Shown here: piece after piece, positions 39,671-61,968 of the stretch | Layout of the letters: the number at the start of each line of letters is the position of its first letter | Numbering within the stretch: the stretch's first letter is position 1 | NCBI GenBank assembly: GCA_963727525.1 | Contig: CAVSGO010000007.1 | Location: forward strand, 1,189,393 to 1,253,392 | Reading direction: 5' to 3' | DNA from: an uncultured bacterium | GTDB lineage: Bacteria; Krumholzibacteriota; Krumholzibacteriia; LZORAL124-64-63 | Length of the DNA stretch: 64,000 nt | Position numbers and translations under genes: made by a program | Notes under the pieces: model-generated | Seen by the model: only the letters and a program-made list of their open reading frames with translations | The model's database searches: none | What the model was told of the DNA's origin: nothing

Positions 39671-39737
39671 ACCAATCTTCACCATAAGACCCCACTGCCA
39701 ACCACTGGACTGTAGTTCTTCCCCACCACAAAGTCAA
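39671..39737 (-). promoter_or_regulatory. mraZ promoter (-35 TTGACT / -10 TACAGT) followed by four 10-bp-phased GTGGN repeats (putative MraZ operator)
   Basis: On the minus strand: TTGACT (39737-39732), 17-nt spacer, TACAGT (39714-39709). Downstream of this come GTGGT/GTGGG/ATGGT/TTGGT at exact 10-bp spacing (plus-strand ACCAA 39671, ACCAT 39681, CCCAC 39691, ACCAC 39701), overlapping the predicted TSS to +35. This resembles the direct-repeat MraZ boxes of other bacteria. Confidence 0.45.
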
Positions 39738-39746
39738 TAGGCTCGC

Positions 39747-39780
39747 GCAAAAAAAAGTGCGGTCCCTGTCCAGGGACCGC
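39747..39780 (-). terminator. Rho-independent terminator ending the glycan-gene operon
   Basis: Minus strand GCGGTCCCTG-GA-CAGGGACCGC (perfect 10-bp stem) followed by ACTTTTTTTTGC. It lies 40 nt after the flippase gene stop and directly upstream of the mraZ promoter. Confidence 0.6.
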
Positions 39781-39820
39781 GATTCCGTCGCAAGATATTG
39801 TCCGATAACGAATTATAACG

Positions 39821-41107
39821 TCAGAGCTTCAGGTCCCCCATCCGTGGTACCAGCAGATCGCGCCATGGCGCTTGCGTCACCGACCGGAAACGCACCAGCA
39901 TGATCGTGCTACCGACGGCGTAGGCCACGCTCGACGCCCAGGCGGCCCCCACGGCGCCATGGGTCGGGATCCAGGCCAGACAGAGGGCAACGTTGGCCGC
40001 CACCGTCGCGGCGCTGGCCTGGGTATTCCAGCCCGACCGGCCGCGGCCGATGAAATCGCCCGCCAGCACCGCCCCCGGGGCGAAGCAGACGATGCCAGGC
40101 AGCAATGCGCGCAGAGGCGCGGCCGACGCCGCGTAACTGCCACGAAAGAGCCACCCGAACACGGGTCCAGCGAGCAACGCCACGAACACCGCCCCCACGG
40201 CCGTGAGCGTCAAGCCCAGGCGCACCGCGCGCGCGGCCGTGGCGTCGCGCACGTGCGGATCGCCGACGTCGGCCGAGGAATGCACGAGGAACGGATTGAG
40301 CGCCTCGGGCAGCATCCAGAGCATCTCCCCCGCCCACACCGCCACGCTATAGATCCCCACCGCCGCCGCGCCGTGATCGAACTCGAGGAAGCCCTGGTCC
40401 ACGCGCAGGAGCAGGAGATACGCCACCGCCGAAAGCTGACCGAGCCAGCCGTGGCGCAGACACCAGCCCACGAGGCGCGGGATCGACGGCGCCGACGCGA
40501 ACTCCGCACGCCCGGACAGCGCGCGTACGGCGAGGATCGCGAGGGCGACCGCCGCCCCCACCTGCACCGCGGCGTACACGCCGATCGCCCCCCGCAGGTT
40601 GAGCGAACCGACGAGGACGAGGACCGCCACACCAGCGAGCTGGGCGATGGCGCGGCCGGCGTTCACGATGGTGCCGGTCACGAGCCGACCGGTGGCCAGC
40701 AGGTCGTAGGTATGGATATCGAAGGCCACCAGTGCCAGCGTGGCCGCGGCCGTGGCGACGAGGCCGAAGCGATCCCACCCCAGGTGCCGCGTGATCCCGG
40801 ACCAGGCGTGCCCCCGCTGCACGGCGAGCACGACCGCGGCGAGCACGAGTGCCAGCAGTCCGAGCCAGCACGCCTGCGCCACGAGCAGGCGCCGCGCGGG
40901 AAGCGTGCGCTGGCGTAGCGGCGGCACGGCGGCCAGGCCCATGCCGCCGTTGAGCAGGGCGGCGACGACCATGGCCACCATCATCGTGAGGCTGAAGTAT
41001 CCCTGCCCCGCGGGACCGAGATGGCCCGCGAGCAGAACCACGACGAGTGCGCCCGCCGCCTTCTGCACGATGCGCCAGACGACGATGCGCGAACCCGTGC
41101 CGACCAT
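39821..41107 (-). CDS. MOP-superfamily polysaccharide flippase (Wzx/MurJ-like)
   Basis: About 12-14 TM helices across 429 aa. It is the last gene of the glycan operon. ATG at 41107 lies 2 nt after the upstream stop. Confidence 0.7.
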   Translation of the reverse strand: MVGTGSRIVVWRIVQKAAGALVVVLLAGHLGPAGQGYFSLTMMVAMVVAALLNGGMGLAAVPPLRQRTLPARRLLVAQACWLGLLALVLAAVVLAVQRGHAWSGITRHLGWDRFGLVATAAATLALVAFDIHTYDLLATGRLVTGTIVNAGRAIAQLAGVAVLVLVGSLNLRGAIGVYAAVQVGAAVALAILAVRALSGRAEFASAPSIPRLVGWCLRHGWLGQLSAVAYLLLLRVDQGFLEFDHGAAAVGIYSVAVWAGEMLWMLPEALNPFLVHSSADVGDPHVRDATAARAVRLGLTLTAVGAVFVALLAGPVFGWLFRGSYAASAAPLRALLPGIVCFAPGAVLAGDFIGRGRSGWNTQASAATVAANVALCLAWIPTHGAVGAAWASSVAYAVGSTIMLVRFRSVTQAPWRDLLVPRMGDLKL

Positions 41108-41109
41108 TG

Positions 41110-42114
41110 TCACGGCCCACCCCGCAGCGTCCGCCGCATCGCCGCCGCCACGGTCCACAGCGGATGCGAGCGGCGGAGCTGGCAACGCACCTCCTCGGCC
41201 GCCCCCATCAGGCGCTTGAACTGCCGCAGGCCGGTGCGCCCCGCGTAGCCGCCGAAGTCAAGGACCCGCGCGCCGCGTGCACATCCCTCGACGATGTCCT
41301 GCCAGTAGAGCAGGGTCGAGGGAAAGACCTCGCGCGCCAGATCCGGACGGCTCGCGCCGTAGAGCGCCGCGACGCGGTCGCGCCAGGCGATGCAGAAATG
41401 GCCGCCGACGATCACTCCCCGCCGCCGCACCAGGGCGAAGAACGCGTGCTGTGAACGCTCGCGCAACAGGGCCTGCATGAACTCGAGCGGCACCGGCGCC
41501 TGCGCCCAGCTGGCGGCCACGTCCAGATAGATGGCATACCAGGCGGCGACGTCGTCGGGATCGGTGCTCGTGTGCAGTGTGCAGCCGCGTTTCAGCCCGC
41601 GATTGCGTTCGTTGCGGCGGTTATTCGAGAGCACGGTGCGCTCGATGTGGGCGAGGCCGCCCGAGAGATCGATCACGGCGGTAGCCACGTCTTCCCGTTG
41701 CCAGCCGGACGCCGCCGGCACGAGCGCCGACTGCGCCGCACTCAGCGTCACCGCGGCGGTGATCGTGCGGCCGCGCACACTCGCGCCGCAGGCGTCGAGA
41801 AGGGCCCCGGCCACGCGCCTCCGTTCGGCCGGCGTCAGGTCGTCGCTCACCTGGGGGCCGGCCGGACTGCCCTCGAGGCCGCTCTCGAGCCGATCGAAAC
41901 CGTGGCGACGGCGGCTGAGCGCCACCAGCCCGCCCACGAGAGCGCCCTCGCGGTGGGCCGCCCACCAGCGCTGCGCGGCATGCGGGTAGTACCGGGCCGC
42001 GGCGTCGTTCCACCATGCGGACGCGGCGAAGTCGGTCGCCGCGACACCGTCGAGCCACGCATCCCAGCCCGCGGGCGCCGTACCGCCGCTCGTGACCGTG
42101 ATCACCGCAGGCAT
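41110..42114 (-). CDS. FemAB-like / BioF2-like GNAT-fold acyl- or peptidyl-transferase
   Basis: Its length, position in a glycan cluster and composition match the GNAT-fold FemAB-like proteins commonly encoded in EPS/O-antigen loci; the assignment is by family resemblance only. Confidence 0.5.
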   Translation of the reverse strand: MPAVITVTSGGTAPAGWDAWLDGVAATDFAASAWWNDAAARYYPHAAQRWWAAHREGALVGGLVALSRRRHGFDRLESGLEGSPAGPQVSDDLTPAERRRVAGALLDACGASVRGRTITAAVTLSAAQSALVPAASGWQREDVATAVIDLSGGLAHIERTVLSNNRRNERNRGLKRGCTLHTSTDPDDVAAWYAIYLDVAASWAQAPVPLEFMQALLRERSQHAFFALVRRRGVIVGGHFCIAWRDRVAALYGASRPDLAREVFPSTLLYWQDIVEGCARGARVLDFGGYAGRTGLRQFKRLMGAAEEVRCQLRRSHPLWTVAAAMRRTLRGGP

Positions 42115-43529
42115 GGTCGCTCGAGCAACGTGGCCAGAGCATCACGGACCCCGCGCCGGTCGCCCAGCGCCGCGAGGTCGAGTAGGTGCGGCATCAGGCG
42201 GGCCGCCGCGTCGGGATCACCGGTGCGGCAACGCGCCTGGTTGATCAGCGGGTTGGCGCTGGTCTCGAGCACCTCGCCGGGATCCAGCAACGACTCGTGG
42301 CACTTCTCGCCGGGCCGCAGGCCCACGATCTCGATCCCGGGTCCGAGATCGTCGTTCTCCACGTCGAATCCCGACAGCGCGAGCAGCGTGCGCGCCAGTT
42401 CCAGGATCGACACCGGGTCGCCCATTTCGAGGATGTACGTAGCACCCGCCTCGCCCAGGACCATGGCCTCGAGGACCAGAAGCGCCGCTTCCTTGATGGT
42501 CATGAAGTAACGCGTCATCTGCGGGTCCGTGATCGGCAACGGCAAGCCCTGAGCGATGCGCCGCTGGAAGAACGGCACCACCGAGCCGCGGCTGCCGAGC
42601 ACATTGCCAAAGCGCACCGTCATGAAGCGCGTCGACCCGGGACCGGCCTGGGCATGCCGTACGAGAAGCTCTGCGAGCTTCTTCGTGGCGCCCATGATGC
42701 TCTGCGGCGCGACCGCCTTGTCGGTGCTCACCATCACGAAGCGCTCGGCGACGACCTCCCGCGCGAACGCGATGAGATTGGCCGTGCCGCCGCCGTTGAC
42801 GACCACGGCCTCCTCGGGATTCGCCTCCATCAGGGGCACGTGCTTGTGGGCCGCGGCGTGCAGAATGAGCTGCGGGCGGTGCCGCTGCGCGAGCACAGTG
42901 AGACGGGCCGCGTCGCGCACGTCGCACACCACCGTCGTGAGCCGGGTCTTGCCGGCGCGCGGCGCCAGCTCGCCGTGGATCTCGAAGAGGCTGTTTTCGC
43001 CGCGGCCGAGCAAGATGAGTTCCTGCGGCTGCAGTGTCAGGAGCTGGCGGCACAGCTCGCCACCGATCGATCCGCCAGCACCGGTCACGAGTACGGTGCG
43101 CCCCTCCACAACGTCGCGCGCCGGACCGGTCTGGAAGGTCACCGTCTCGCGGCCGAGCAGATCCTCGGGCGCGATGGGGCGCACCTGCTGGAAGCTGACG
43201 TCGCCCTCGATGATGGCGCGCAGGCCAGGCACGATGCGAAAGGGCAGCTTCGCGCGCCGGCACAGCATGAGCAAGCGGCGGATGAGCGCCCCGCGCGCAC
43301 TCGGGATGGCCAGCAGGATCTCCTGCGCGCTGACCGCGCGGGCCGCGTCCACCAGGTGGGTCGTATCGCCGACCACCGGCAGCCCGACCACTTCCTTCCC
43401 CAGCAGGGCGGCATCGTCGTCGACGAAACCGACCGGCTCGACGGCCAGATCCTGTTCGCGGATCTGCCGCACCAGCGAGCGTCCGGCCTCGCCGGCGCCG
43501 ACGATGAGCAAGCGCGCCTTGGTGGTCAA
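42102..43529 (-). CDS. CapD/PglF/WbpM-like NDP-sugar 4,6-dehydratase (soluble form lacking the TM region)
   Basis: Rossmann motifs LIVGAGEAG and VLVTGAGGSIGGEL plus a catalytic MVSTDKAV...Y...K region. TTG at 43529 (GGAAAGGA RBS, TTGA overlap with the upstream stop) is preferred over the ORF-track start at 43730. Confidence 0.75.
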   Translation of the reverse strand: MTTKARLLIVGAGEAGRSLVRQIREQDLAVEPVGFVDDDAALLGKEVVGLPVVGDTTHLVDAARAVSAQEILLAIPSARGALIRRLLMLCRRAKLPFRIVPGLRAIIEGDVSFQQVRPIAPEDLLGRETVTFQTGPARDVVEGRTVLVTGAGGSIGGELCRQLLTLQPQELILLGRGENSLFEIHGELAPRAGKTRLTTVVCDVRDAARLTVLAQRHRPQLILHAAAHKHVPLMEANPEEAVVVNGGGTANLIAFAREVVAERFVMVSTDKAVAPQSIMGATKKLAELLVRHAQAGPGSTRFMTVRFGNVLGSRGSVVPFFQRRIAQGLPLPITDPQMTRYFMTIKEAALLVLEAMVLGEAGATYILEMGDPVSILELARTLLALSGFDVENDDLGPGIEIVGLRPGEKCHESLLDPGEVLETSANPLINQARCRTGDPDAAARLMPHLLDLAALGDRRGVRDALATLLERPCLR

Positions 43530-45499
43530 CGAGCGTCCTTTCCCGATTCGCGACTGCCGCCGGGCTGGAACCAGAGCGTCCGCCAGGTAGATCCGCGTCC
43601 GCCCGCCCAGGCGCCGGTGAGTCCCGGCGGCGCCGAGATCGCGTTCCAGAACGGATCGGCGTCCCAGGCGTTCGGCCGCGGCCCCACGAGGGACACGTGC
43701 CCCCGCAACAGTGCGACGACCAGCGGCCACTGCCTCCAGAGGGGCAAGATGCGCCCATCCCGGCCGGTCGCAATCGTGACCCGGAGATTATGCCCGCCCG
43801 CGCCGCGCCAGTCGATGATTTCCCGCCCCGAATGACCGCGCGACCAGACCGCCACCACCGCCAGGGCCGCCCCCACGACCAGCCCCAGCACCCTCAGGCC
43901 GGCGCGACGCAGAGTCTGTCCATCGTCCGGGTCGAGCACGCCGCTCACGTCCGCACCGAAAGTCTCCGCCCGGGCCCCGGCCTCGAGCATCCAGGCTTCG
44001 TCGATGCGCCAACGCAGTCGGATGCGCGCGCGGCGCAGCTGCGCGAGCTCGGCCGCATCGCCCCGGGGAGCCTGCCAGAACACGACCTGGGACACCCGCA
44101 GCCGCTCGACGAGTGCCGGCAGCTCCTGCACCGGCCCGAGCCACGGGATCTCCAGCTCCTGGTCCGTGACGGGCGCATCGGTCACGTAGCCCACGGGATC
44201 GATCCCCTCGCGGCGCGGGTCCGGACAGCCGCCCAACCACTGCTGGAGCTGCGCGGGCGTGGCCACGAGCAACGTGCGCTCCAGGGAGAAGTAGCCGCGC
44301 TCCATGCGACGCCGCAGGCGGGTGAAGATCTGTTCACCCAGGATGGTCAGCCCGGTGAACAGCGCCAGGAAGAGCACGAGCACCGCGCGACTCACGACGT
44401 CCTGTCGACCGAGGTACGGCGTCGCCAGCAGGAGCAGCCCCACGAGGCCCTGCTGCCGCACATACTCGCCCAGTCGCGTGAGTCGGCGCAGCCGCTCGCC
44501 CCGGTACCGCCCCAGGAGCAGGAACGTCACCGTCACGAGCAGGGCGGCGTACGCCAGGAAGCCGCGATACCAGGACAGCGGGAAGAGGGTCTCGGGAAAC
44601 AATGGCTGGAACGCACGCCGCACCCCGTACGCAGTGAGGAAGGCGACGAGAAGCAGCACCATGTCCAGCAGCCAGAGCCCGATCTGGTCGAGCGGTTGCC
44701 GCCACTTCTTGAGCAGGTAGACGAGCACGCCCCACTTCTCGTAGAACGACATCAGGCTCGTCAGGTGCAGCCAGTAGCTGCGCGTCAGCGGGCCGCGCGC
44801 ACTGGCGCGCCGGTGGCGGTGCACGAAACGCGCAGCGGGCGTGTAGACGACCTCATACCCGCAGCGCCACATGCGGTAGCACCAGTCGACGTCCTCGAAG
44901 TACAGGAAGAAGCGCTCGTCCATCGGTCCGCACCGCGCCAGCGCGTCGCGCCGCACCAGGAGGCAGCCGCCCAGCACCCAGTCCACCGGACGTTCGCTCA
45001 AATGGTCGAAGTCGCGCATGAGATGGCGACTCACCGTGCGGCTGCGGGGAACGACGCGTCCCAGCGGCGTCCGCCGCAGCAGCAGCGTGCGCAGGGTGTA
45101 GAAGCGCCGACACGACTCCTGCACGCTGCCGTCGTCGTTGAGCAGTTGCGGACCGATGATGCCGGCGCGCGGCCGTGCGGCGGCGAAGGCCACGAGCGCG
45201 TCGAGCGAGCCCGGCAGCACCACGATGTCGGGATTCAGGATGAGGTAATAGTCGGCCGCCACCTGCGCGAGTCCCTGGTTGCACCCGCGCGCGTAGCCCC
45301 GGTTCTCGGTGTTCATGAGCCAGTGGCAGGCCGGAAAACGATCGCGCACACGATCGAGATCGGGGGCGGTGCTCGCGTTGTCCACGACGACGATCTCGTG
45401 GGCACACGCCGGCGCTTGCTCGTGCAGCGAGGCCAGGCATCGCTCGAGATCGTCGGGCGTGTTGTAATGAATGATCACGATGCCGAGCGTCACCGACAT
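43526..45499 (-). CDS. Bifunctional GT2 glycosyltransferase fused to a bacterial sugar-transferase (phosphoglycosyl transferase, PF02397-like) domain
   Basis: N-terminal GT2 (IVIIHYNTPDDLERCL...VVDNAST, DxD in the FEDVDW region), central TM helices, and a C-terminal LRGHVSLVGPRP...PGLTGAW that matches the ...MSLVGPRP...KPGITG motif of priming sugar transferases. ATG at 45499 shares 1 nt with the upstream stop. Confidence 0.7.
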   Translation of the reverse strand: MSVTLGIVIIHYNTPDDLERCLASLHEQAPACAHEIVVVDNASTAPDLDRVRDRFPACHWLMNTENRGYARGCNQGLAQVAADYYLILNPDIVVLPGSLDALVAFAAARPRAGIIGPQLLNDDGSVQESCRRFYTLRTLLLRRTPLGRVVPRSRTVSRHLMRDFDHLSERPVDWVLGGCLLVRRDALARCGPMDERFFLYFEDVDWCYRMWRCGYEVVYTPAARFVHRHRRASARGPLTRSYWLHLTSLMSFYEKWGVLVYLLKKWRQPLDQIGLWLLDMVLLLVAFLTAYGVRRAFQPLFPETLFPLSWYRGFLAYAALLVTVTFLLLGRYRGERLRRLTRLGEYVRQQGLVGLLLLATPYLGRQDVVSRAVLVLFLALFTGLTILGEQIFTRLRRRMERGYFSLERTLLVATPAQLQQWLGGCPDPRREGIDPVGYVTDAPVTDQELEIPWLGPVQELPALVERLRVSQVVFWQAPRGDAAELAQLRRARIRLRWRIDEAWMLEAGARAETFGADVSGVLDPDDGQTLRRAGLRVLGLVVGAALAVVAVWSRGHSGREIIDWRGAGGHNLRVTIATGRDGRILPLWRQWPLVVALLRGHVSLVGPRPNAWDADPFWNAISAPPGLTGAWAGGRGSTWRTLWFQPGGSRESGKDAR

Positions 45500-46215
45500 C
45501 ACGGAATCTTCTTCAGCCGCAGGGCCCACACCACCCACGCCGCTTCCAAGATGATCCGTCGCGACATCTTGCTCATGCCGACCTGCCGATCGACGAAGAG
45601 TATCGGAATCTCCTTGATGCGCATCCCGCGTTTCCACACGTGGTACGTCACCTCGATCTGGAAACTGTAGCCGTCGCTCTTGATCCGGTCGAGGGGCAGC
45701 GCCGCGAGGGTCGAGCGGCGGAAGCACTTGAAGCCGCCCGTGCAATCGCTGACCGGCAGGCCCGTGATCAAGCGCGCGTAGTGATTGGCGCCCACGCTGA
45801 GGATGAGCCGGCTCAGCGGCCAGTTCACCACCGTGATGCCATGCAGATAGCGGCTACCGAGCACGAGATCGTGGTCGGCGATCTCGCGCAGGAATTGGGG
45901 CAGCGCCGTGGGGTCGTGGCTATGATCGGCATCCATCTCGAAGATCACGTCGCATTCGGTGTTGGCCAGCACCCACTGGAAGCCGGCGATGTAGGCCTGT
46001 CCCAGGCCGGCCTTGCTGGGCCGCAGCAGTAGATGCAGCCGCGTGCCGAAGCCGGGCAGACCGCGCACCACGTCGGCCGTGCCATCGGGCGAGCTGTCGT
46101 CCACGACCAGCACGGCGAGCCGGGGATCCTGCGCGAGGATCTCGGGTACGATGCGCGCGATGTTCTCCGCCTCGTTGTAGGTCGGTACCACCACGATGGG
46201 CCGCATCTCACTCAT
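45499..46215 (-). CDS. GT2 polyprenyl-phosphate sugar synthase (Dpm1/Ppm1-like, e.g. polyprenol-P-mannose synthase)
   Basis: IVVVPTYNEAENI...VVDDSSPDGT...EMDADHSHDP...GFKCFRR motifs are typical of the dolichyl/polyprenyl-phosphate mannosyl/glucosyl transferase family. There is no C-terminal TM. GGAGG RBS. Confidence 0.75.
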   Translation of the reverse strand: MSEMRPIVVVPTYNEAENIARIVPEILAQDPRLAVLVVDDSSPDGTADVVRGLPGFGTRLHLLLRPSKAGLGQAYIAGFQWVLANTECDVIFEMDADHSHDPTALPQFLREIADHDLVLGSRYLHGITVVNWPLSRLILSVGANHYARLITGLPVSDCTGGFKCFRRSTLAALPLDRIKSDGYSFQIEVTYHVWKRGMRIKEIPILFVDRQVGMSKMSRRIILEAAWVVWALRLKKIP

Positions 46216-48643: not shown

Positions 48644-48661
48644 ACGGCCCTCCTTCGCGAT

Positions 48662-54500: not shown

Positions 54501-54755
54501 CGCGGCGGCGGTACGCGTGGACGCTGTCGTGGTGTCGGCTTGCCCCAGGACGCAATCAAATACGCGGCCCACAAGCACGTAGAGCGGCGTGCCCGGCTGG
54601 TGCGGGATGCCGACGATATGGCTAGTCGTGATGTACTCGGCGCAATCCCAGAAGCTGATGGTCGGCGCCATGGTGGCGGTGTAGACACCCAGGGCAAGCA
54701 GGAAGACGCCGCCCGCCACGAGGTTCCCCGGGCGCAGGTACCACTTGCGGTCCAA
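51555..54755 (-). CDS. DUF2723 / TMEM260-like GT-C membrane glycosyltransferase with C-terminal TPR repeats (1066 aa)
   Basis: The N-terminal hallmark SFWDCAEYITTSHIVGIPHQPGTPLYVL matches the DUF2723 WDsGEf...GiPHpPGyPL motif. At least 12 TM helices are followed by a large C-terminal soluble region with TPR-like repeats (…YYPALLMEHGQIAKALAFLESL…). TTG start at 54755. Confidence 0.75.
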   Translation of the reverse strand: MDRKWYLRPGNLVAGGVFLLALGVYTATMAPTISFWDCAEYITTSHIVGIPHQPGTPLYVLVGRVFDCVLGQADTTTASTRTAAAVNWMSAFFSALAVMLSYLVIVRLARRVDPDSGWIAIAGGVVGALFLTFSETFWNNAIEAEVYGLAGFMMALLTWLGLRWYETRTEERSNWLLLLLIYLFGLGVGFHLGSLLAYPGIFLLIWMTTDRQLPVLDLMLVSVGLALFLASTTFVTNGGILLALIIVYTLACVARAMARRPLALLALLLFVAGLSVHLMMIIRAGAHPEPAINQTTPDNFKTLLSVLRREQYPALNPLQRQAPLSFQFRYYYDFLMQQFVFLSQKHGMAAFLGTLIGPIALGLLGLVNGVRRARPVLWMLVALYLVNADLLTLYLNFTDHEVRARDYFYFAAFMYYAVFIGLGVAALLRFTAGPEGPSLGQLEREANPPPPARPFLPRGFLLRWGAAFIVAMVLLVFTPAGARPGVLPFILFGGPFLGLFLCRFIDRPGEPARGRAAAPPPAAWNARSWGARLGLGLMFIALMVVGGLMLSLFAAGQDRLFVMVCYGAVLGGALLAYGEQRGMPRRLAPVAAVRAVPTGVLAKVAAALLVLIAALPLIQPHHVKWFEHDRHENRIPYQYAYNILAGLDENAIVFTNGDNDTFPIWYLQEVEHFRRDVTVVNLSLVNLPWYVEQLRGRNPGIPLSFTKAQVEALRPRALRDADTGNITYVYVRDYVVQDVVDTNRRSAHPRPVFFAVTIPRENMATYFPFLQMEGLAYRLLETKSPDNLPTTDGERLLANVLGAYELSALLTGDDAPRHQRFAEAVGWQSDTPPALNLEKYGLPTRLDLAPVLELVGHDRTDVYRDANTLNLLGNYPVSIARAGFDYLRDSEELRTSNGDLAAADTTAYDHLTDRALTCYELALRFDPTNALVATGYYPALLMEHGQIAKALAFLESLHGRIDPAIEEQAILAGVRGLLGLDRADQAAAWLEQQIDRAPQWTFAYDLLFRVYESAGEVGKCRDLVTRYETATGKPDPTLRDRMQKLDAKARDQENSRMKETIQGGGQ

Positions 54756-54835
54756 ACTGTCCCCTTACGTAAGCGGAATGAATACGCGCACTTCAGGCCG
54801 CAGAAGGTAACACACGGTCAAATGGGCGACAACCC

Positions 54836-55804
54836 TCAACCCCTGACGGTGGCGTCGGTTCCCGCCGGGCGGCGGCTCCAGAACACGACCCCTCCCACGA
54901 GGCTGAACGCCACCATCACCAGGAAGGCCATCATCTCCATGGCCACCACGGCGCGCGGTTCGAGCCCCGACCAGGGCAACAGGTAGGCCGACACGGTCTC
55001 GCGCAGCCCGATACCATTGATCGTCACCGGCAGTGTGAGGCTGATGGCCAGCATCGGCACCAGAACGAAGAGCTGCAGCACCTGAGCGCCCGCGAGCGAC
55101 AGATGGAGGCCCCAGGCCACGGCCAGGTGCGTGACGATGCGCAGGGCCTGCACGACCAGGCTGTAGGCAAAGAGCCGCGCGAGGAGGCGCGGGCGCCGGC
55201 GGAAGGCCTGGAAATCGGCCACCACCATCGCCAGTTGCTCGGCCAGCGTGGGCATCCGCAACCGCCGGAGCCAGCCGGGCAACCGCGTACCCAGACGCCG
55301 CGACAGCAGGGCGGCGACCGCGCCACCCAGGACCAGCAGCACCCCGCCGAGCAGCCACGTCACCGGCGGCAACGGGATCCCGGCCCCCACGGCGACCGCG
55401 ACGGCGACCACCGCCACCATCGTCAGGGCGCTCAGGCCGAGCAGCCGATCCAGGAGCGTGGCGGCGAAGACCTTCGCCGCATCCTGCTCCCGGCGACCGA
55501 GATCGACGACCTTGTAGATGTCGCCGCCCACGTTGGCAGGCAGGAAGTTGTTGAAGAACAGCCCCACCAGGTACAGCCGCACACACACGCGCATGCGGGT
55601 GCCGAGGCCGGCGGCATGCAGCAACCAGCCCCATTGCAGCGCGCCCCCGATCGCGGAGAGCCCGTAGACCGCGAGAGCCACCGCCAGCCACCCCCACATC
55701 GGCTGGCGCAGCGCGGCCTGGATCTCGGCCAGCGGCTGGCGCGAGAGCAACCAGGCCAGCAGGGCGAGACTGACGACGATCTTCGCCAGCTGCTTCGCGG
55801 TCAC
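54836..55804 (-). CDS. LPG-synthase-TM-like / flippase-like membrane protein (UPF0104)
   Basis: 8-TM protein with GLFFNNFLPANVGGD motif typical of the lysyl-PG-synthase TM/flippase-like family. GTG at 55804 overlaps the GT4 stop (GTGA). Confidence 0.6.
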   Translation of the reverse strand: MTAKQLAKIVVSLALLAWLLSRQPLAEIQAALRQPMWGWLAVALAVYGLSAIGGALQWGWLLHAAGLGTRMRVCVRLYLVGLFFNNFLPANVGGDIYKVVDLGRREQDAAKVFAATLLDRLLGLSALTMVAVVAVAVAVGAGIPLPPVTWLLGGVLLVLGGAVAALLSRRLGTRLPGWLRRLRMPTLAEQLAMVVADFQAFRRRPRLLARLFAYSLVVQALRIVTHLAVAWGLHLSLAGAQVLQLFVLVPMLAISLTLPVTINGIGLRETVSAYLLPWSGLEPRAVVAMEMMAFLVMVAFSLVGGVVFWSRRPAGTDATVRG

Positions 55805-56922
55805 CGTTGCGCTCCGATCGCCACCCGCGCGAAGAGGTCGAGCGATTCACGCACGCACGTCGGCCACGCGAAGCTCGCAGCCCATACCCGCGCGGCGTCG
55901 CTGTAGCAGGCCCAGAGGTCGCGATCGTGCAGCAGGCTCAGCGCAGCGTGAGCCATGGCCTCGGCATCGCCGTAGGGCACGAGGATCCCGGTCTGCCCGT
56001 CGCGCACGGAGTCGCGCAGGCCGGGCCGGTCGCTCGCCACCACGGGCAAGCCGCACTGGTTGGCCTCCACCACCGTCAATCCCCACCCCTCCTTGGGGCT
56101 GGGGTTCAGGCACACGTGAGCCCGGTGCAGGGTGCGCACCAGCTCGTCCCAGGGCAGGTGGCCGGTGAAGGTGACGGCATCGGTCAGGCCGACCCGCGCC
56201 ACGAGCCGGCGCAGCCGCGGCTCGTCCGGTCCGCGCCCCATGACGATCAGGTTCGCTTCCGGCAGCTCTTCTCGGATGTGCGCGAAGGCACGGATCGCCA
56301 CGTCGTTGCTCTTGTAGCGTCGCAGCCGCGACCAGCACACCACCAGCGGCGTCTCGGTGCGCGGCGGCGGGTCGTCGAGGGCAAAGCGCTCGTGCGCGAG
56401 ACCGCAGTGGATCACGGCGATGCGCTCGCGCGCGACGCCGCGCCGCGCGAGATCGTCGGCAGTGGACTGACTGATGACCTCGAATGTCGCGTGCCGGTAG
56501 ACCAGCGGAATCGGCCACTCGCCGGCCCACACGTAGGTGGCAACCAGGGGGTTGGTCTCGCGGTACACCGTCCGCCCGAAGAGGTGCGGCACGATGACCA
56601 GCACCGGTACCTTGCCCGCATAGAGCGGCGTGTAGAACGGGATCTTGTTGATGTCCTCGACGACGAGATCCCAGCTCTCCTCGCGCAGGCGCCGACGCAC
56701 TACGGCCGGCAGCAGGATATTCGCGAAGCGCCAGTCGCCGTGGCGCCGCACCCGGACGCCGTCGAGCATATCGGTGGCCGGCGCGCCGGCATAGGCCGCG
56801 CAAATAAGTTCCACCTCGTGACCGTGGGCTGCCGCACCGCTGAGCAGGTGGTGCAGATGCTGCTCCGCGCCACCGCCGAGAGGGTCGCCGATGTCGCGCC
56901 AGTTCACCGCGAGGATCCTCAC
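55801..56922 (-). CDS. GT4 family glycosyltransferase (Glycos_transf_1)
   Basis: VRILAVNW...GGAEQHLHHLL N-domain and C-terminal EGWGLTVVEANQCGLPVVASD (EX7E-type). GTG at 56922 overlaps the methyltransferase stop (GTGA). Confidence 0.8.
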   Translation of the reverse strand: MRILAVNWRDIGDPLGGGAEQHLHHLLSGAAAHGHEVELICAAYAGAPATDMLDGVRVRRHGDWRFANILLPAVVRRRLREESWDLVVEDINKIPFYTPLYAGKVPVLVIVPHLFGRTVYRETNPLVATYVWAGEWPIPLVYRHATFEVISQSTADDLARRGVARERIAVIHCGLAHERFALDDPPPRTETPLVVCWSRLRRYKSNDVAIRAFAHIREELPEANLIVMGRGPDEPRLRRLVARVGLTDAVTFTGHLPWDELVRTLHRAHVCLNPSPKEGWGLTVVEANQCGLPVVASDRPGLRDSVRDGQTGILVPYGDAEAMAHAALSLLHDRDLWACYSDAARVWAASFAWPTCVRESLDLFARVAIGAQR

Positions 56923-57680
56923 GGCTTGCGCCCCACGACGCCGATGGTGGGGGTGGTATACAGCGCCAGGCGACGTCGGCCGAACCAGTCGCGCCAGCCC
57001 TGGCCCAGGGTACCGAAGGGGCGCATGGGGAGCCGGGCGCCCGTGCGCGTGAGCACGACCTTTCGCAACGCGCGGTACCAGAGCCCCGGGACCATCCAGT
57101 CGCCGTAGCTTCGCTGCGGCACCAGGCCGGCCTGGCGCACCAGAGACTCCAGCTCGTCGATCGTGAACTGCGTCTCCCAGCCCGCAAACCACTTGCCCAG
57201 GGCGATGAGGACCTGCTTGCCCACGGTGTAGTAGTGGAACGTCTGCGGCACGTCCACCACGAGCACGCCGCCATCGCGCAGGACCCGCACGTTCTCGCGC
57301 AACAGCGGCAAGGGGTCGCGAAAGTGCTCGAGCAGGCCCTGATGGAAGACCACGTCGAAGGTGCCGTCGGGAAAGGGCATGGCCAGGCCGTCGCCACACA
57401 CCGGCGCCACGGGTGCCGACGCCGTCCGGGCCGCCTGCTGGGTCAAAAGTAGCGAGCCAGGCACGTAATCGAGGGTGATGATCTCGGCGCCGGCGGCTGC
57501 CAGGGTGACGGCGTCGCGCCCCGTACCCGCGCCGACCTCGAGCACGCGCTTGCCGCGCAGGTCGCCCAGCGCGGTGATCTCGCGCACGAGGCGACCGTCG
57601 TTGCCGTAGACGTCGTCCAGGCCGTGCGCATCGGCTTGCTCCCAGAACTGCTGCCAGTGCCGCGGCGTCGATTCCCTCAC
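56919..57680 (-). CDS. Class I SAM-dependent methyltransferase
   Basis: Motif I VLEVGAGTGRD and post-I/II motifs (DVVFHQGLLEH...LRDGGVLVV). GTG at 57680 overlaps the nusB stop (GTGA). Confidence 0.75.
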   Translation of the reverse strand: MRESTPRHWQQFWEQADAHGLDDVYGNDGRLVREITALGDLRGKRVLEVGAGTGRDAVTLAAAGAEIITLDYVPGSLLLTQQAARTASAPVAPVCGDGLAMPFPDGTFDVVFHQGLLEHFRDPLPLLRENVRVLRDGGVLVVDVPQTFHYYTVGKQVLIALGKWFAGWETQFTIDELESLVRQAGLVPQRSYGDWMVPGLWYRALRKVVLTRTGARLPMRPFGTLGQGWRDWFGRRRLALYTTPTIGVVGRKP

Positions 57681-58090
57681 GGCTTCAGCCCCGCCGCCGC
57701 CCGGTCGAGCACGCCGTTCACGAACCCCACCGCGTGCTCGTCGCAGAACAAGCGTGCAAGCTCGCAAGCCTCGTTGATGGCCACCTTGTACGGCACCTCG
57801 GGGCTGTGATGCAGCTCCGTGATGGCCAGCGTGAGGATGAGCCGTTCAAGCAGCCCGACCCGTTCGAGGTCCCAGTTCGCGAGCAACGGCGCGATCTCGC
57901 GCTCGTGGGCCGCGCCGTGATTGATGACCTTGCGCACGAGCTCGCGGGCGAAGTCGCTGGTCTCGTCGTTCGATTCGCGGCGGTCCAGCTGATCATCGAG
58001 GCACTGGAGCAGCCCCCCGCCGCTCACGCGGGAGGCGTACATGGCCTGCAGAACGATCGCGCGCCCCTTGCTGCGTTTGCCCACGGTCAC
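57677..58090 (-). CDS. nusB: Transcription antitermination factor NusB
   Basis: RSKGRAIVLQAMYA...W...R....ERLIL..A..EL all-helical NusB signature. GTG at 58090 overlaps the ribH stop (GTGA). Confidence 0.85.
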   Translation of the reverse strand: MTVGKRSKGRAIVLQAMYASRVSGGGLLQCLDDQLDRRESNDETSDFARELVRKVINHGAAHEREIAPLLANWDLERVGLLERLILTLAITELHHSPEVPYKVAINEACELARLFCDEHAVGFVNGVLDRAAAGLKP

Positions 58091-58560
58091 CCCTTGTCGA
58101 TGGTGGCGTAGAGATCGATCATCTCGAGGGCGGTCATGGCCGCATCGAACCCCTTGTTGCCCGCCTTGGTTCCGGCCCGCTCGATCGCCTGGTCGAGAGT
58201 CTCGGCGGTGACGACACCGTAGACGACCGGGATGCTCGCTTCCAACCCCACCTGCGCGACGCCCTTCGTCAGCTCGTTGCTGATGTAGTGCCAATGGGGC
58301 GTGTCGCCCTGGATGACGCAACCCACGCAGATGACCGCCGCATACCGGCCGCTGCCGGCGAAGCGTTTGGCCACCGGCGGGATCTCGAAACCTCCAGGCA
58401 CCCACGCCAGGTCCACCTGGTCGTCGCTCACACCGTGGCGGCGCAGGCAGTCGCGCGCGCCGTCCACCAGCTCGCTGGTGAAGAAATCGTTGAAGCGGCT
58501 GGCGACGATGGCGATCTTCTGCCCACGCGCATCGAAGCGTCCCTCGTACGTCTTGCCCAT
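58087..58560 (-). CDS. ribH: 6,7-dimethyl-8-ribityllumazine synthase
   Basis: KIAIVASRFN...GGFEIP...AVI.LG.VI.G.T.H lumazine synthase motifs. Confidence 0.95.
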   Translation of the reverse strand: MGKTYEGRFDARGQKIAIVASRFNDFFTSELVDGARDCLRRHGVSDDQVDLAWVPGGFEIPPVAKRFAGSGRYAAVICVGCVIQGDTPHWHYISNELTKGVAQVGLEASIPVVYGVVTAETLDQAIERAGTKAGNKGFDAAMTALEMIDLYATIDKG

Positions 58561-58576
58561 GTCTCCTCCTGTGCGA

Positions 58577-59779
58577 TTACAGATGATCCAGCAGGTGGCC
58601 GAGGCGCGCCTTCTTGGTCTTCAGGTACTCGAGGTTGCGCAGATTCGGTCGGATCTCCAGCGGTACCCGATCGACGATGTGCAGACCGTAGCTGTCGAGC
58701 CCGACGATCTTGCGCGGATTGTTCGTCATCAGCCGCATCTCGCGCACGCCCAGATCGCGCAGCATCTGGGCGCCGAGTCCATACTCGCGCAGATCGGCCG
58801 GAAAGCCCAGGCGGTGGTTGGCCTCGACGGTGTCCAGGCCCGCGTCCTGCAGATCATAGGCCTTGAGCTTGTTCAGCAGGCCGATGCCGCGCCCTTCCTG
58901 CCGCATGTACAGCAGCACGCCGCGCCCCTCGGCCTCGATGGCCGTGAGCGCCGCCTCGAGCTGCTCGCCACAGTCGCAGCGGAGACTGTGGAAGAGGTCA
59001 CCGGTGAGGCACTCGCTGTGCACCCGCACCAGGGTGGGCTCCTCGGTCACGATGTCGCCCTTGACCAGCGCCAGGTGCACGAGGCTGTCGACGCTGGTGG
59101 TGTAGGCGATCATGCGGAAGTTGCCGTGCCGCGCGGGCATGGCCACGTCGGCCGCGCGTGTGACGAGCTGCTCATGGCCACGCCGCCAGCGGATGAGGTC
59201 GGCGATGGAGATGAGCCTAAGGTCGTGCTCCCGTGCAAGCTCCAGCAGGCGCGGCAGACGCGCCATGCTGCCGTCGTCGTCCATGATCTCGCAGAGGATG
59301 CCCGCCGGGGTGAGCCCGGCCGCCCTGCAGAGATCGACCACGGCCTCCGTATGCCCGGCCCGCCGCAGCACGCCGCCGTTCACCGCCTCCAGCGGAAAGA
59401 CATGCCCGGGTCGCGCCAGATCCTGCGACCGCGTCTGCGGGTCGATGAACACTTGCACCGTACGCGCACGGTCGTGCGCGCTGATGCCCGTCGTGGTGCC
59501 GGTGGCGGCGTCCACGCTCACGGTGAACTGCGTACCAAGACTGGCCGTATTGCGCGCCACCATGGGCTGCAGCTCCAGCTCACGCATACGTTCGCCGGTG
59601 GCGGCCAGGCACACGAGACCGCGCCCGTGCTTGGCGACGAAGTTGATCGCCTGGGGCGTCACCTTGTCGGCGGCCATGACGAAATCGCCCTCGTTCTCGC
59701 GGTCCTCATCGTCGACCACGATGATGAGCTCGCCGCGCTTCAACGCTTCGAGAGCGGAATCGATGGTGTCGAGGGTCAT
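58577..59779 (-). CDS. ribBA: Bifunctional DHBP synthase / GTP cyclohydrolase II
   Basis: RibB half ([15 protein letters not shown]) and RibA half (ECLTGD...CDCG, RDxxxK). ATG at 59779 overlaps the ribE stop (ATGA). Confidence 0.95.
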
Positions 59780-60441
59780 GATCTCTCCCCTGAGTCGCGG
59801 CTCCAGCCGCGCGCGAGGATGAAGCCGAGGTCGGGCACCTGGGCCGCGACCTCCGCCCGCCGCCCCGTGCGGGCGGCCTTGACAAGCACATCCATCTCCA
59901 GATTCACGCGCCGCCCCCGCCGGGCCTGCGCGAACGTCGTCCAGCGAAGCGTGTGCGGGATGAGGTTCAAGGTGAAGCGGTCGACATGCGGACCGGCATC
60001 CACCGTGAGGCTGACACCGTCCACTGCGACCGACCCCTTGGGCATGAGCCACTGGACGAGATCCGCGCCGCATGCCACCGTCATCAAGAAGCTGGCGCCT
60101 TGCGGCCTGATGGCCGCGATGGTGCCCGTGCCGTCCACGTGACCCTGCACGAGGTGCCCGTCCAGCGCCTGACCGGCCTGCAGCGCGGGTTCGAGATGGA
60201 GACGATCGCCGGCGCGCCAGCCTGCCAGCGTGGTGACCCGCAGCGTCTCGGCCGCGGCTTCCACGGTGACGGCGTCGCGCGCATGATCCGTGACGGTGAG
60301 GCAGATGCCATTGACGGCAAGCGAGTCGCCGGCCTTCAGCGCCGGCGCCGTCCGGGGCGCGCCGATTGTCAGACGCGCGAGCTGCCGCGTCGTGTGCATG
60401 GCGCGCAGGGTGCCGATCTCGCGGATGAGGCCCGTGAACAC
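59776..60441 (-). CDS. ribE: Riboflavin synthase alpha subunit
   Basis: [12 protein letters not shown]... N-terminus and duplicated lumazine-binding halves ([13 protein letters not shown] / [12 protein letters not shown]). GTG at 60441 has a GGGAGGGGAG RBS. Confidence 0.85.
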
Positions 60442-60442
60442 G

Positions 60443-61528
60443 TCACTCCCCTCCCGCAAGCTGGCGACGCGTGGCCGCGAAGTCGGTGTGGTCCCAGACG
60501 GCGCACAGATCGTTGCCCACCTGGTCGGTGCGTGTGAGAGAGAACGCCTCGACCGGGCCGCTCGTGCTCGACGGCCACGACGGGCCGTCGCCGAGCACGA
60601 CCGGCGCCGTGTATTGCACCCAGCGATCCACGAGCCCGGCCGCAAGGAAGCTCGCCGCCAGCCGCGGCCCGCCCTCCAGCAGCACCGTGTGCACGTGCCG
60701 CGACGACGACGCCTCGAGCAGCGCGGTCGGATGGATCCCGTTGCGCCCCGCCGGGCAGCGCAGCACGTCGAAACCCGCAGGCGGCGTGCCGTTGGCCGTG
60801 TGCGCACAGAACACGAGACCGCTCTCGCGCCGTAGCCCACTCTCGAGTTCGAGCCGCGTGTCGACGTAGCCGACCAGCGGCAGCGCCTGCGGACAGCACG
60901 CGTCGTCGACCACGAGCCGCGTGTCGAGGCGCGGACGGTCGGCCTCCGCCGTACCGCGCCCCACGAGCACGAGGTCGAGCCATCGGCGCCTCTCGTGCAC
61001 GCGCCGGCGCGCCGACTCGCTGGTGAGGTAGACCGGCCCGGCCGCGAGCTTGGCCGCCGGCGCGAAGCGCCCGTCGAGACTCTGCGCCGTCTTCAGTTCC
61101 ACGTAGGGCCGGGCGAAGCCCTCGGTGACGACGAATGGCCACACCAGTTCGAGGCAGGCATCGGCTTCGACGCCGAGCATGACCTCCACGCCCTCGCCCA
61201 CCAGCCGCGCCAGTCCCCCGCCCTTGACGGTGGGATTGGGGTCCCGCACTCCGCATACGACGCGCGTGATGCCCGCCTGCAGGATCGCCTCGGTGCACGG
61301 CGGCGTGCGCCCGTGGTGATTGCAGGGCTCGAGGGTGCAGAACAAGGTGGCGCCGCGCGCGCGCGCGCCGGCCTCGCCAAGGGCCACGCGCTCGGCGTGA
61401 GGTCGGCCGGGCCCGTGGTGGGCTCCACGCCCGACGACCTCGCCGTCGCTTACGACGAGTGTGCCCACCGGCGGGTTCGGCCACGTCCGTCGCGGCAACC
61501 GCCCCGCCAGTTGCAAAGCCTCGTTCAT
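60443..61528 (-). CDS. ribD: Bifunctional riboflavin biosynthesis deaminase/reductase RibD
   Basis: CMP/dCMP deaminase zinc motif (HAERVAL...TLEPCNHHGRTPPC) followed by an RibD_C reductase domain. ATG at 61528 (MNEALQLAG). Confidence 0.9.
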   Translation of the reverse strand: MNEALQLAGRLPRRTWPNPPVGTLVVSDGEVVGRGAHHGPGRPHAERVALGEAGARARGATLFCTLEPCNHHGRTPPCTEAILQAGITRVVCGVRDPNPTVKGGGLARLVGEGVEVMLGVEADACLELVWPFVVTEGFARPYVELKTAQSLDGRFAPAAKLAAGPVYLTSESARRRVHERRRWLDLVLVGRGTAEADRPRLDTRLVVDDACCPQALPLVGYVDTRLELESGLRRESGLVFCAHTANGTPPAGFDVLRCPAGRNGIHPTALLEASSSRHVHTVLLEGGPRLAASFLAAGLVDRWVQYTAPVVLGDGPSWPSSTSGPVEAFSLTRTDQVGNDLCAVWDHTDFAATRRQLAGGE

Positions 61529-61599
61529 ATACTGCGCATCGCGCAAGACGGTAGACCCTTCGTCCGTGCCGGCACGAAGGGAGAGGCGGGGGTCTGGCC

Positions 61600-61714
61600 C
61601 CAACTTCTCCCATCCGGACTGTGACCGTCGGCTCCGGAATCTCACCGGATCGTGCCCTTGCGGGCTCGCGGGCTTTCACCGCCGGTGGGGACTTCCACCC
61701 CGCCCTGAAGTTGG
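61600..61714 (-). promoter_or_regulatory. FMN riboswitch (RFN element) in the ribD leader
   Basis: Minus strand CCAACTTCAGGGCGGGGTGGAAGTCCCCACCGGCGGTGAAAGCCCGCGAGCCCGCAAGGGCACGATCCGGTGAGATTCCGGAGCCGACGGTCACAGTCCGGATGGGAGAAGTTGG. It carries the conserved GGG(C)GGGGTGaAAgTCCC...ACCGGCGGT...AGCCCGCGAGC...GGATGGGAGAAG blocks and an 8-bp P1 (CCAACTTC/GAAGTTGG). A downstream 8-bp hairpin (61556-61581) is a possible expression platform. Confidence 0.85.
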
Positions 61715-61727
61715 ATCTGGCTGCCCC

Positions 61728-61756
61728 AAAATAGCTGGCAGTGTTCGAGCGGTCAA
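61728..61756 (-). promoter_or_regulatory. Putative sigma70-type promoter driving the FMN riboswitch and rib operon
   Basis: Minus strand TTGACC (61756-61751), 17-nt spacer, TATTTT (61733-61728), placing the TSS about 7-10 nt before the riboswitch P1. Confidence 0.4.
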
Positions 61757-61968
61757 GCCGACTGCTCGTGCCCGAATCGGTGACAGCGACTGCACACCGC
61801 GATCGGATTGCTCGGGTCGCCCACCACGGCGCTGGCGGATTCCCCGCGGATCAATGCCTACGACCCGGTTGCGCACCACGTCCGTGCCGCCCGTATCTCA
61901 CCGTCGGCAACGCCGGCGCGACGCGGACGACGAGGTATATGGCCATCGTCCCCCGCAACGCAACGCCC

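Follow-up and report, generated by a model that had tools for sequence, protein, structure and literature searches.

The 64,000-nucleotide stretch analysed here (hereafter the window), part of contig CAVSGO010000007.1 of an uncultured Krumholzibacteriota bacterium, carries on its minus strand an array of 18 genes in which riboflavin (rib) genes behind a flavin mononucleotide (FMN) riboswitch are followed by nusB and then by 13 glycan-assembly genes, over ~22 kb between a predicted promoter (61756) and an intrinsic terminator (39747; Table 1). Our reading, to which we give a probability of roughly 60%, is that this is a lineage-conserved, co-linear array composed of at least three promoter-defined units without terminators between them. 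A preliminary description of this DNA had listed the same elements from riboswitch to terminator, all of which we recovered in place; its further claim, that they form one uninterrupted transcription unit starting at the riboswitch promoter, is not supported, given two conserved internal promoter motifs (P2 and P3) and the separate nusB promoter found in about half of the relatives.

The gene order is kept well beyond this genome. As far as each contig reaches, the succession ribD, ribE, ribBA, ribH, nusB, methyltransferase, GT4, flippase-like, TMEM260-like, epimerase, GT2, GT2 and YfhO-like is preserved in 87 related loci (Krumholzibacteriota-like and Candidatus Eisenbacteria), so that the synteny check proposed in the preliminary description came out clearly positive, and the nusB-to-glycan junction that it had called unusual does exist and recurs in both candidate phyla. 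Among NusB homologues of 56-80% identity, those that carry a name are mostly Candidatus Krumholzibacteriia/Krumholzibacteriota, with one labelled Gemmatimonadales, and five NusB-homologue loci (60-70% identity) present smc, ftsY, variable cargo, an FMN riboswitch and the rib-nusB-glycan order on one strand. A metagenome scan with the methyltransferase added 80 further loci (47-79% identity), each with the same order in its tblastn layout. The most distant group, with NusB at 30-38% identity, is assigned to Candidatus Eisenbacteria by the names that sources give to identical proteins; the order is retained there, with a metallophosphoesterase of 241 amino acids (aa) added between nusB and the methyltransferase (L158:9258-9983, L155:1738-2463), whose stops and starts touch or overlap those of its neighbours. 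The methyltransferase protein search returned close relatives only, with no wider taxonomic range, and the matches listed in a NusB search of genome contigs included gammaproteobacterial and other NusB proteins at ≤40% identity. No link of nusB or ribH to glycosyltransferase operons was found in the literature searched. For the distal half of the array the comparison comprises three relatives only (L168-L170), reached through flippase-homologue look-ups; they share the order YfhO-like, GT2, GT2 fusion, a ~800-aa gene, dehydratase, FemAB-like, flippase, mraZ and dcw. The ~800-aa gene, which has no clear Pfam family and stands between the GT2 fusion and the dehydratase (L168:5149-7533, L169:5059-7494, L170:6401-8833), is absent from the window. 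Horizontal acquisition of the glycan genes was also considered and rejected on the grounds of uniform GC content and cross-phylum synteny.

Spacing between the genes reveals which parts of this order hold together. In the window, 21,672 of 21,726 nt (99.7%) are coding and 12 junctions overlap by 4-13 nt; the tight packing with one exception noted previously is accurate, the sole gap above 18 nt being that of 80 nt at 54756-54835. Stop and start codons overlap as ATGA at ribE/ribBA, as GTGA at nusB/methyltransferase, methyltransferase/GT4, GT4/flippase-like, TMEM260-like/epimerase and GT2c/GT2 fusion, and as TTGA at GT2 fusion/dehydratase (43526-43529), while epimerase/GT2a, GT2a/GT2b and YfhO-like/GT2c share 8 nt. 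The overlaps listed in the preliminary description stood at ribE/ribBA, at the three junctions from nusB to the flippase-like gene, at TMEM260-like/epimerase and at GT2 fusion/dehydratase, but probably not at ribH/nusB, where a 2-nt spacer is more likely. We place the nusB start most likely at GTG 58084, 2 nt past the ribH stop, and not at the overlapping GTG 58090, because the NusB N-terminus in all relatives reads (V/L)GKR(S/R)KGR, a VGKRSKGR-type start, and because the source genome's own NusB call is 135 aa long.

Across the related loci, where start codons were guided by homology and spacings are hence approximate, nusB and the methyltransferase overlap by 4 nt in 54 of 73 cases and the TMEM260-like/epimerase spacing is zero or negative in 28 of 31, whereas the gap exceeds 30 nt between the flippase-like and TMEM260-like genes in 37/46 loci (median 108) and between GT2b and the YfhO-like gene in 19/21 (median 138). 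The ribH-to-nusB distance is bimodal, at ≤10 nt in 30 loci and 33-3385 nt in 27. Judged by these sequence comparisons, the evolutionarily stable, presumably co-translated units are nusB-methyltransferase-GT4-flippase-like, TMEM260-like-epimerase-GT2-GT2, and YfhO-like through the flippase. The unit that evolution appears to have kept around nusB is the first of these and not a rib-nusB-glycan block; the rib genes join it directly in some genomes, this one included, and via a promoter-bearing leader in others.

The only positions at which relatives retain non-coding gaps are also those at which the two internal promoter motifs sit. The 80-nt gap, singled out in the preliminary description as a place to look for an internal promoter, indeed carries one such motif, P2, which recurs in 35 of 37 equivalent gaps of relatives (31 distinct sequences). 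Its consensus is gTTGT(T/C)G-N11-cgTGTGtTAg.TT, with the TTGT, TGTG, TA and TT positions nearly invariant and a spacer that is variable in sequence and fixed in length at 17 nt, and it matches the -35 box of a sigma70-type promoter together with a TRTG '-16' element and a -10 box of the form TAnnnT. Scored with a weight matrix derived from relatives, the window site reaches 39.2 bits and nothing else in the 64 kb exceeds 12 bits on either strand; the corresponding regular expression has 45 matches in 1.54 Mb of related loci, 35 of them the P2 site itself. Even a relaxed TTGnnn-17-TAnnnT search of the 22-kb sense strand (39747-61756) finds two sites only, P2 and the promoter ahead of the riboswitch (P1), and none on the antisense strand. 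The second motif, P3 (TGGACA-N18-TAnnnT with a TG extension), occurs in 20 of 21 loci before the YfhO-like gene. The predicted P1 and mraZ promoters, like those before nusB in relatives, agree with a sigma70-like consensus.

Terminators, on the other hand, are found at the end of the array and not inside it. Within the array, no minus-strand intrinsic terminator stronger than a 5-bp stem was detected, and such weak candidates are not clearly above the level of shuffled sequence (5 against 6.6 ± 2.7; 5 against 2.1 ± 1.4), which bears out the earlier statement that none lies between nusB and the cluster end. If the array were a single operon, one would look for co-oriented genes at short or negative spacing, which is what we see, and for the lack of internal terminators, which is likewise seen apart from these weak candidates; one would also look for the lack of internal promoters, and here the conserved P2 and P3 motifs say otherwise. 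At the boundary to the dcw cluster, TTGACA-17 sites occupy the equivalent mraZ position in L168 and L169. Inside that cluster, a 134-aa gene with a STAS_2 domain (38.1 bits) lies between mraZ and rsmH (window 38764-39168, minus strand), and the same insertion is present in L168 and L169.

The junction between ribH and nusB deserves particular attention, as it decides whether nusB stands behind the riboswitch. Roughly half of the relatives have rib and nusB separated, either by a leader that bears a promoter or by inserted genes: where the ribH-nusB gap is long, nusB is preceded by TTGC(G/A)(G/A)-17-CATAAT or TTGCAn-17-TAAAnT, and some of these loci have whole genes inserted. None of the fused-junction relatives has a promoter-like site within 150 nt upstream of nusB, and neither the window nor its closest relative L092 has a ribH-nusB gap or a promoter-like match in or near ribH. 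Within the rib genes of this genome, no promoter that could serve nusB was found beyond a poor match at 60311 (ATGGCA-17-GATCAT).

A survey of the 150 nt before nusB (which begins at 10001 in nusB-centred loci) also showed that the long-gap leaders have three parts: a promoter TTGCAn-17-TAAAnT, a hairpin GGGGAAGG-loop-CCTTCCCC with a U-rich tail, and a boxA-like G(A/T/C)TCTTTGACAGG. The boxA-like element lies 21-23 nt before the nusB start codon and abuts the ribosome-binding site; examples are L086:9815-10000, L101, L097, L099, L110, L114, L105, L109, L112, L115, L117 and L095. By analogy, this leader looks like an arrangement for NusB autoregulation, which has been proposed for the Pseudomonas ribH-nusB pair with boxA upstream (PMC5725501). 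This promoter-hairpin-boxA leader is entirely absent from the window, and no boxA-like sequence with ≤1 mismatch occurs in it (13 two-mismatch matches against 8.25 expected).

At the head of the array, the FMN riboswitch is the only Rfam family to reach its gathering threshold within the 64 kb, and its aptamer ends 51 nt upstream of the ribD start. An FMN riboswitch precedes ribD in five relatives as well (L081-L084, L086), and of 25 distinct relatives 12 have a P1-like site upstream of theirs. Starting ribD at TTG 61546 yields the N-terminus MRDAQYMNEALQLAGR, which we take to resemble that of Escherichia coli RibD. In relatives (L092, L081-L083, L132) the hairpin equivalent to the platform hairpin of Table 1 is followed by U5-U7 and the start codon, and could thus serve as terminator and sequestor both. 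In this genome the U tract is absent and UCUACCGUC stands in its place (61547-61555), and this replacement may reduce the double role to that of a sequestor only. The UCUCCC upstream may alternatively pair with GGGAGA of the aptamer closing helix, which makes for a plausible switch. The riboswitch therefore probably controls translation of ribD rather than transcription of the whole array; because the platform has no U tract, intrinsic termination is an unlikely means for FMN to control the whole array, and Rho polarity on the genes downstream of ribD is possible. A rule by which fused ribH-nusB junctions would go with the lack of a terminator-type platform was tried and rejected, since a hairpin with a U tract occurs in 3 of the 9 fused cases and in 8 of the 13 unfused ones; L092, with a fused junction and yet a U7 platform, is a counter-example.

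In relatives, the stretch from ftsY to the riboswitch is a hot spot for insertions, whose same-strand genes encode a CotH-domain protein or a hybrid histidine kinase or are unknown genes of ~430 aa (L083:2638-5847, L084:3564-5894, L081:4388-5677, L086:4496-5803). In the window it consists of only 212 non-coding bases (61757-61968); no terminator is predicted behind ftsY, and transcription could therefore continue into the riboswitch.

Taken together, these data suggest the following organisation, set in a longer same-strand block of smc, ftsY, rib, nusB, glycan genes and mraZ/dcw. In a first unit, P1 and the FMN riboswitch would drive ribD, ribE, ribBA and ribH and, here, also nusB, methyltransferase, GT4 and flippase-like genes, because nusB follows 2 nt behind ribH and has no promoter of its own. 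In a second, P2 would drive the TMEM260-like GT-C enzyme, the epimerase, the ArnC-like transferase (GT2a) and GT2b. In a third, P3 would drive the YfhO-like GT-C enzyme, the DPM1-like synthase (GT2c), the GT2 fusion, the 4,6-dehydratase, the FemAB-like protein and the Wzx flippase, ending at the only strong terminator. The distal two thirds (~15 kb) would be expressed independently of the riboswitch promoter, probably from promoters of their own. Inside the units, stop/start overlaps would provide translational coupling, on which the several starts that lack a ribosome-binding site probably rely; between units, read-through is likely because no terminators separate them, and long transcripts are possible. 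When bound to FMN, the riboswitch would most likely hide the ribD ribosome-binding site, and any effect of FMN on nusB would come about via Rho polarity rather than intrinsic termination.

Several observations weigh against this organisation. P2 is not universal, as the Eisenbacteria loci have neither a gap nor the motif before the TMEM260-like gene. Both P2 and P3 are predicted promoters, for which a sigma70-like specificity is assumed in these phyla, and they could supplement rather than replace a dominant full-length transcript from P1. L092 combines a terminator-like platform (U7) with no nusB promoter and no P3, which fits poorly with constitutive expression of nusB and suggests that termination is leaky or that promoters escaped detection. 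The approximate start codons behind the spacing statistics, and glycan-module assignments (discussed below) that are family-level matches below equivalog cut-offs, belong on the same side of the balance.

As an alternative to promoter-defined units, the array could be an inherited piece of a long leading-strand block that rearranges slowly, with no shared regulation or function beyond incidental read-through, an explanation we regard as unlikely while giving it some room. It would account well for the same-strand run, which the preliminary description had stressed and which, although real, is not special to this region: every gene between ~11.4 kb and the end of the window at 64 kb lies on the minus strand, a run of at least 52 kb that goes well beyond the array. 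The conservation of smc-ftsY upstream and mraZ-dcw downstream, the insertions that the ftsY/ribD and ribH/nusB boundaries accept in relatives, and a GC content that is uniform, glycan genes included (69% over the window), are in its favour too. What it leaves unexplained is that the nusB/methyltransferase overlap is far more conserved than ribH/nusB or the other unit boundaries, a pattern that points to selection for expressing nusB together with the three genes behind it.

We consider it quite improbable that a single 22-kb polycistronic messenger starts at P1 and that FMN status sets NusB and all 13 glycan genes. One strand, the coding density, the stop/start overlaps and internal terminators not above chance are all as this would predict, and since no recognisable promoter lies between P1 and P2 here, nusB through the flippase-like gene are probably transcribed through the riboswitch. 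Set against it are the conservation of P2 and P3 at the only non-coding gaps that relatives retain, the independent promoter before nusB in many relatives, the platform without a U tract and, on our reasoning, the physiological oddity of FMN sufficiency shutting off the essential NusB and envelope functions.

Antitermination of polysaccharide operons has an analogue in the RfaH/UpxY/LoaP systems, which raises the question of whether nusB heads the glycan genes for a functional reason, namely NusB-dependent processive antitermination or growth-rate signalling over a long envelope/division block. The nusB/methyltransferase overlap and the adjacency of these genes across two phyla would be in keeping with this, as would the boxA-like G(A/T/C)TCTTTGACA in the nusB leader of relatives, which would mean that Nus-factor RNA signals exist at the locus, and the published precedent of boxA upstream of ribH-nusB (PMC5725501). 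Nevertheless, we find this very doubtful: the window has no such sequence at ≤1 mismatch, the position of the element beside the nusB ribosome-binding site fits autoregulation of nusB and not antitermination downstream, and the Eisenbacteria phosphoesterase is inserted between nusB and the methyltransferase. It is more improbable still that the nusB-methyltransferase-GT4-flippase-like module ties the level of a ribosomal RNA antitermination factor to envelope glycolipid synthesis and export, and that in genomes which, like this one, would have lost the separate nusB promoter and boxA leader, flavin status gates ribosome-biogenesis capacity and envelope glycan production together under the FMN riboswitch, just upstream of the division genes, because the window has no Nus-factor RNA signal and relatives readily uncouple rib from nusB.

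Table 1. Predicted signals and genes of the array, in order of transcription (window coordinates).
Feature	Position	Strand	Basis or remark
P1, sigma70-like promoter, TTGACC-17-TATTTT, 11 nt upstream of aptamer	61728..61756	-	pattern match
FMN riboswitch aptamer (RF00050)	61598..61716	-	Rfam, 112.8 bits against gathering 66.2, model positions 1-138 (full length)
Platform hairpin CCCUUCGUGCCGGCACGGACGAAGGG; GAAGGG ribosome-binding site, 9 nt ahead of ribD start TTG 61546, forms the 3' arm	61556..61581	-	predicted fold
ribD (deaminase/reductase), TTG start	60443..61546	-	dCMP_cyt_deam_1 and RibD_C
ribE (riboflavin synthase), GTG start 1 nt past ribD stop	59776..60441	-	Pfam/NCBIfam
ribBA (DHBP synthase / GTP cyclohydrolase II), ATGA overlap with ribE	58577..59779	-	Pfam/NCBIfam
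ribH (lumazine synthase), AGGAGG ribosome-binding site, 16-nt gap before	58087..58560	-	Pfam/NCBIfam
nusB	57677..58084	-	TIGR01951 equivalog, 113.8 bits against curated cut-off 88.35
Class I S-adenosylmethionine methyltransferase, 253 aa, GTGA overlap with nusB	56919..57680	-	same 253-aa call in source genome
GT4 glycosyltransferase, GTGA overlap	55801..56922	-	profile matches
LPG_synthase_TM / flippase-like membrane protein, GTGA overlap	54836..55804	-	TIGR00374 above cut-off
P2 motif, TTGTCG (54832-54827)-N17-TACCTT (54809-54804), TGTG -16 element, inside 80-nt gap	54804..54832	-	
TMEM260-like (DUF2723) GT-C glycosyltransferase, 1066 aa, TTG start	51555..54755	-	PF11028
NAD-dependent sugar epimerase/dehydratase, GTGA overlap	50500..51558	-	profile matches
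GT2a, ArnC/PgfS-like polyprenyl-phosphate sugar transferase, C-terminal membrane helices	49584..50507	-	NF007986, 198.7 bits, below equivalog cut-off
GT2b glycosyltransferase	48662..49591	-	profile matches
P3 motif, TGGACA-N18-TAACCT, TG extension, overlaps last codons and stop of GT2b	48664..48693	-	conserved before YfhO-like gene
YfhO-like GT-C membrane glycosyltransferase, 811 aa	46208..48643	-	PF09586, 32.3 bits, C-terminal match only
GT2c, DPM1/PpgS/AglJ-like polyprenyl-phosphate sugar synthase	45499..46215	-	profile matches
GT2 fusion with membrane/CoA_binding_3 part of polyprenyl glycosylphosphotransferase, degenerate Bac_transf remnant	43526..45502	-	Bac_transf, TIGR03025
Polysacc_synt_2 UDP-GlcNAc 4,6-dehydratase-like (PseB/FnlA-like), TTG start in TTGA overlap	42102..43529	-	profile matches
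Acetyltransf_6 / FemAB-family protein	41110..42114	-	profile matches
Wzx/MOP-type oligosaccharide flippase, 428 aa	39821..41107	-	homologues; database protein P0121 100% identical
Intrinsic terminator, 9-bp G+C-rich hairpin GCGGTCCCTGGACAGGGACCGC and T8	39747..39780	-	
mraZ promoter-like site TTGACT-17-TACAGT, boundary element, dcw cluster start	39709..39737	-	pattern match

Pfam and NCBIfam matches confirmed ribD, ribE, ribBA, ribH and NusB; the glycan genes are best described at the level of families. The Gtr, Arn, CsbB-YfhO and PpgS-Rv3779 systems follow one scheme: in the cytoplasm a lipid phosphate receives the sugar, which is then flipped and, outside the membrane, transferred by a GT-C enzyme. 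The glycan genes look like two modules of this 'lipid-phosphate-sugar synthase plus GT-C transferase' kind alongside a flippase-dependent one for an oligosaccharide, all of which would serve a cell-envelope glycoconjugate. GT2a falls in the same predicted unit as the TMEM260-like GT-C enzyme, and GT2c in that of the YfhO-like one. The TMEM260-like protein matches PF11028 at 158.1 bits (gathering 24.2; 2.5e-46), and its N-terminal GT-C domain matches the human TMEM260 structure 9rql (7.9e-16). GT2a has two hydrophobic C-terminal helices and falls well short of the cut-off of 529 in its match to the ArnC model (Table 1), and GT2c resembles PpgS, AglJ and dolichyl-phosphate hexose transferases at family level (~53 bits with the PpgS and AglJ models, cut-offs 325-370). 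The GT4, methyltransferase, flippase-like, GT2b, 4,6-dehydratase, FemAB-like and Wzx-type flippase genes suggest a flippase-dependent oligosaccharide or glycolipid branch. The Wzx-type flippase has no Pfam/NCBIfam match itself; homologues at ~50% identity contain PF01943, PF03023 or PF13440, and their sources call them flippases.

The 'complete lipid-linked glycan pathway' of the preliminary description is an overstatement. Bac_transf in the GT2 fusion reaches 20.5 bits against a Pfam cut-off of 27 and covers profile positions 94-138 only, a remnant of ~40 residues, TIGR03025 matches at positions 1-223 of 445 only, and the stretch that usually contains DE reads RQWPLV. The fusion does retain the WbaP/WcaJ-type membrane and CoA_binding_3 part, its catalytic domain being the degenerate remnant RQWPLVVALLRGHVSLVGPRP. 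Among the 13 genes, Pfam and NCBIfam gave no intact initiating sugar-phosphate transferase and no Wzy-type polymerase or O-antigen-ligase-type enzyme, and there is no aminotransferase; because the Bac_transf catalytic domain is only a remnant, the cluster may have no functional initiating transferase, or a divergent one. Nor did any of the 13 match a GtrA/GtcA-type small flippase, the flippase-like protein present (TIGR00374) being a different one.

If our reading is correct, it defines an envelope-glycan locus, conserved at phylum level and equipped with predicted promoters, for two uncultured candidate phyla, and it supplies a bacterial genomic context for TMEM260/DUF2723 enzymes, whose human homologue is linked to disease. 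It also carries a more general lesson: tight packing, co-orientation and missing terminators do not alone prove a single operon, and here it was the comparison of a few non-coding gaps across relatives that exposed the likely internal promoters. The variable ribH-nusB junction, with a promoter/hairpin/boxA-like leader in some genomes and a 2-nt fusion in others, amounts to a natural experiment in which the gene of an essential factor is placed behind a metabolite-sensing riboswitch.

Each part of the array has a counterpart among known systems. FMN-riboswitch rib operons (RF00050) include the terminator type of Bacillus subtilis ribDEAHT and the translation/Rho type of E. coli ribB; the locus shares with them a full-length, high-scoring aptamer before ribD and, as predicted, a platform hairpin that includes the ribosome-binding site, but its transcript would run on into nusB and non-riboflavin genes, and the U tract of its relatives is absent. 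A ribH(ribE)-nusB pair is common in bacteria, as in the E. coli arrangement nrdR-ribD-ribE-nusB-thiL-pgpA, and here, too, nusB directly follows the lumazine synthase gene on one strand, with a boxA-like leader in some relatives. In contrast to that pair, however, a whole rib operon with an FMN riboswitch lies upstream and no boxA-like sequence accompanies it in this genome, while, unlike in E. coli, nusB is followed by a methyltransferase (4-nt overlap) and glycosyltransferases instead of thiL and pgpA. The dcw cluster of model bacteria parallels our array in layout: there, numerous genes on one strand end in one terminator, with several promoters but no terminators inside. Our array, which adjoins dcw, is likewise long, packed and co-oriented; its genes overlap, promoters are predicted inside it, and it has only one strong terminator. 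The genes differ, and promoter use is experimentally established in dcw and only predicted here.

Three-component glycosylation systems (GtrA/GtrB/GtrC, ArnC/ArnT, CsbB/GtcA/YfhO, PpgS/Rv3779 and the Streptococcus mutans PgfS/PgfE/PgfM) combine polyprenyl-phosphate sugar GT2 enzymes and GT-C transferases with epimerase and flippase-like proteins, a grouping that the array resembles at family level, whereas here there are two GT-C enzymes, one of the TMEM260/DUF2723 type, and no GtrA-type flippase. A characterised bacterial TMEM260/DUF2723 member was not found in the literature searched. Human TMEM260 is a protein O-mannosyltransferase (PMC10214176; PDB 9rql); the bacterial protein differs in its length of 1066 aa, with a long extra C-terminal region, and the likeness lies in the sequence of the GT-C domain. 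The known kinds that meet in this locus are thus the FMN riboswitch-rib operon, the ribH-nusB pair, the glycan gene cluster and the long multi-promoter array without internal terminators. Overall, it is a lineage-specific conserved gene array rather than a new mechanism, and what is new in it is the deeply conserved link of nusB to the methyltransferase-GT4-flippase-like unit and on to two GT-C modules beside dcw, together with the fusion of the nusB-headed unit to riboswitch-controlled rib genes in this genome.

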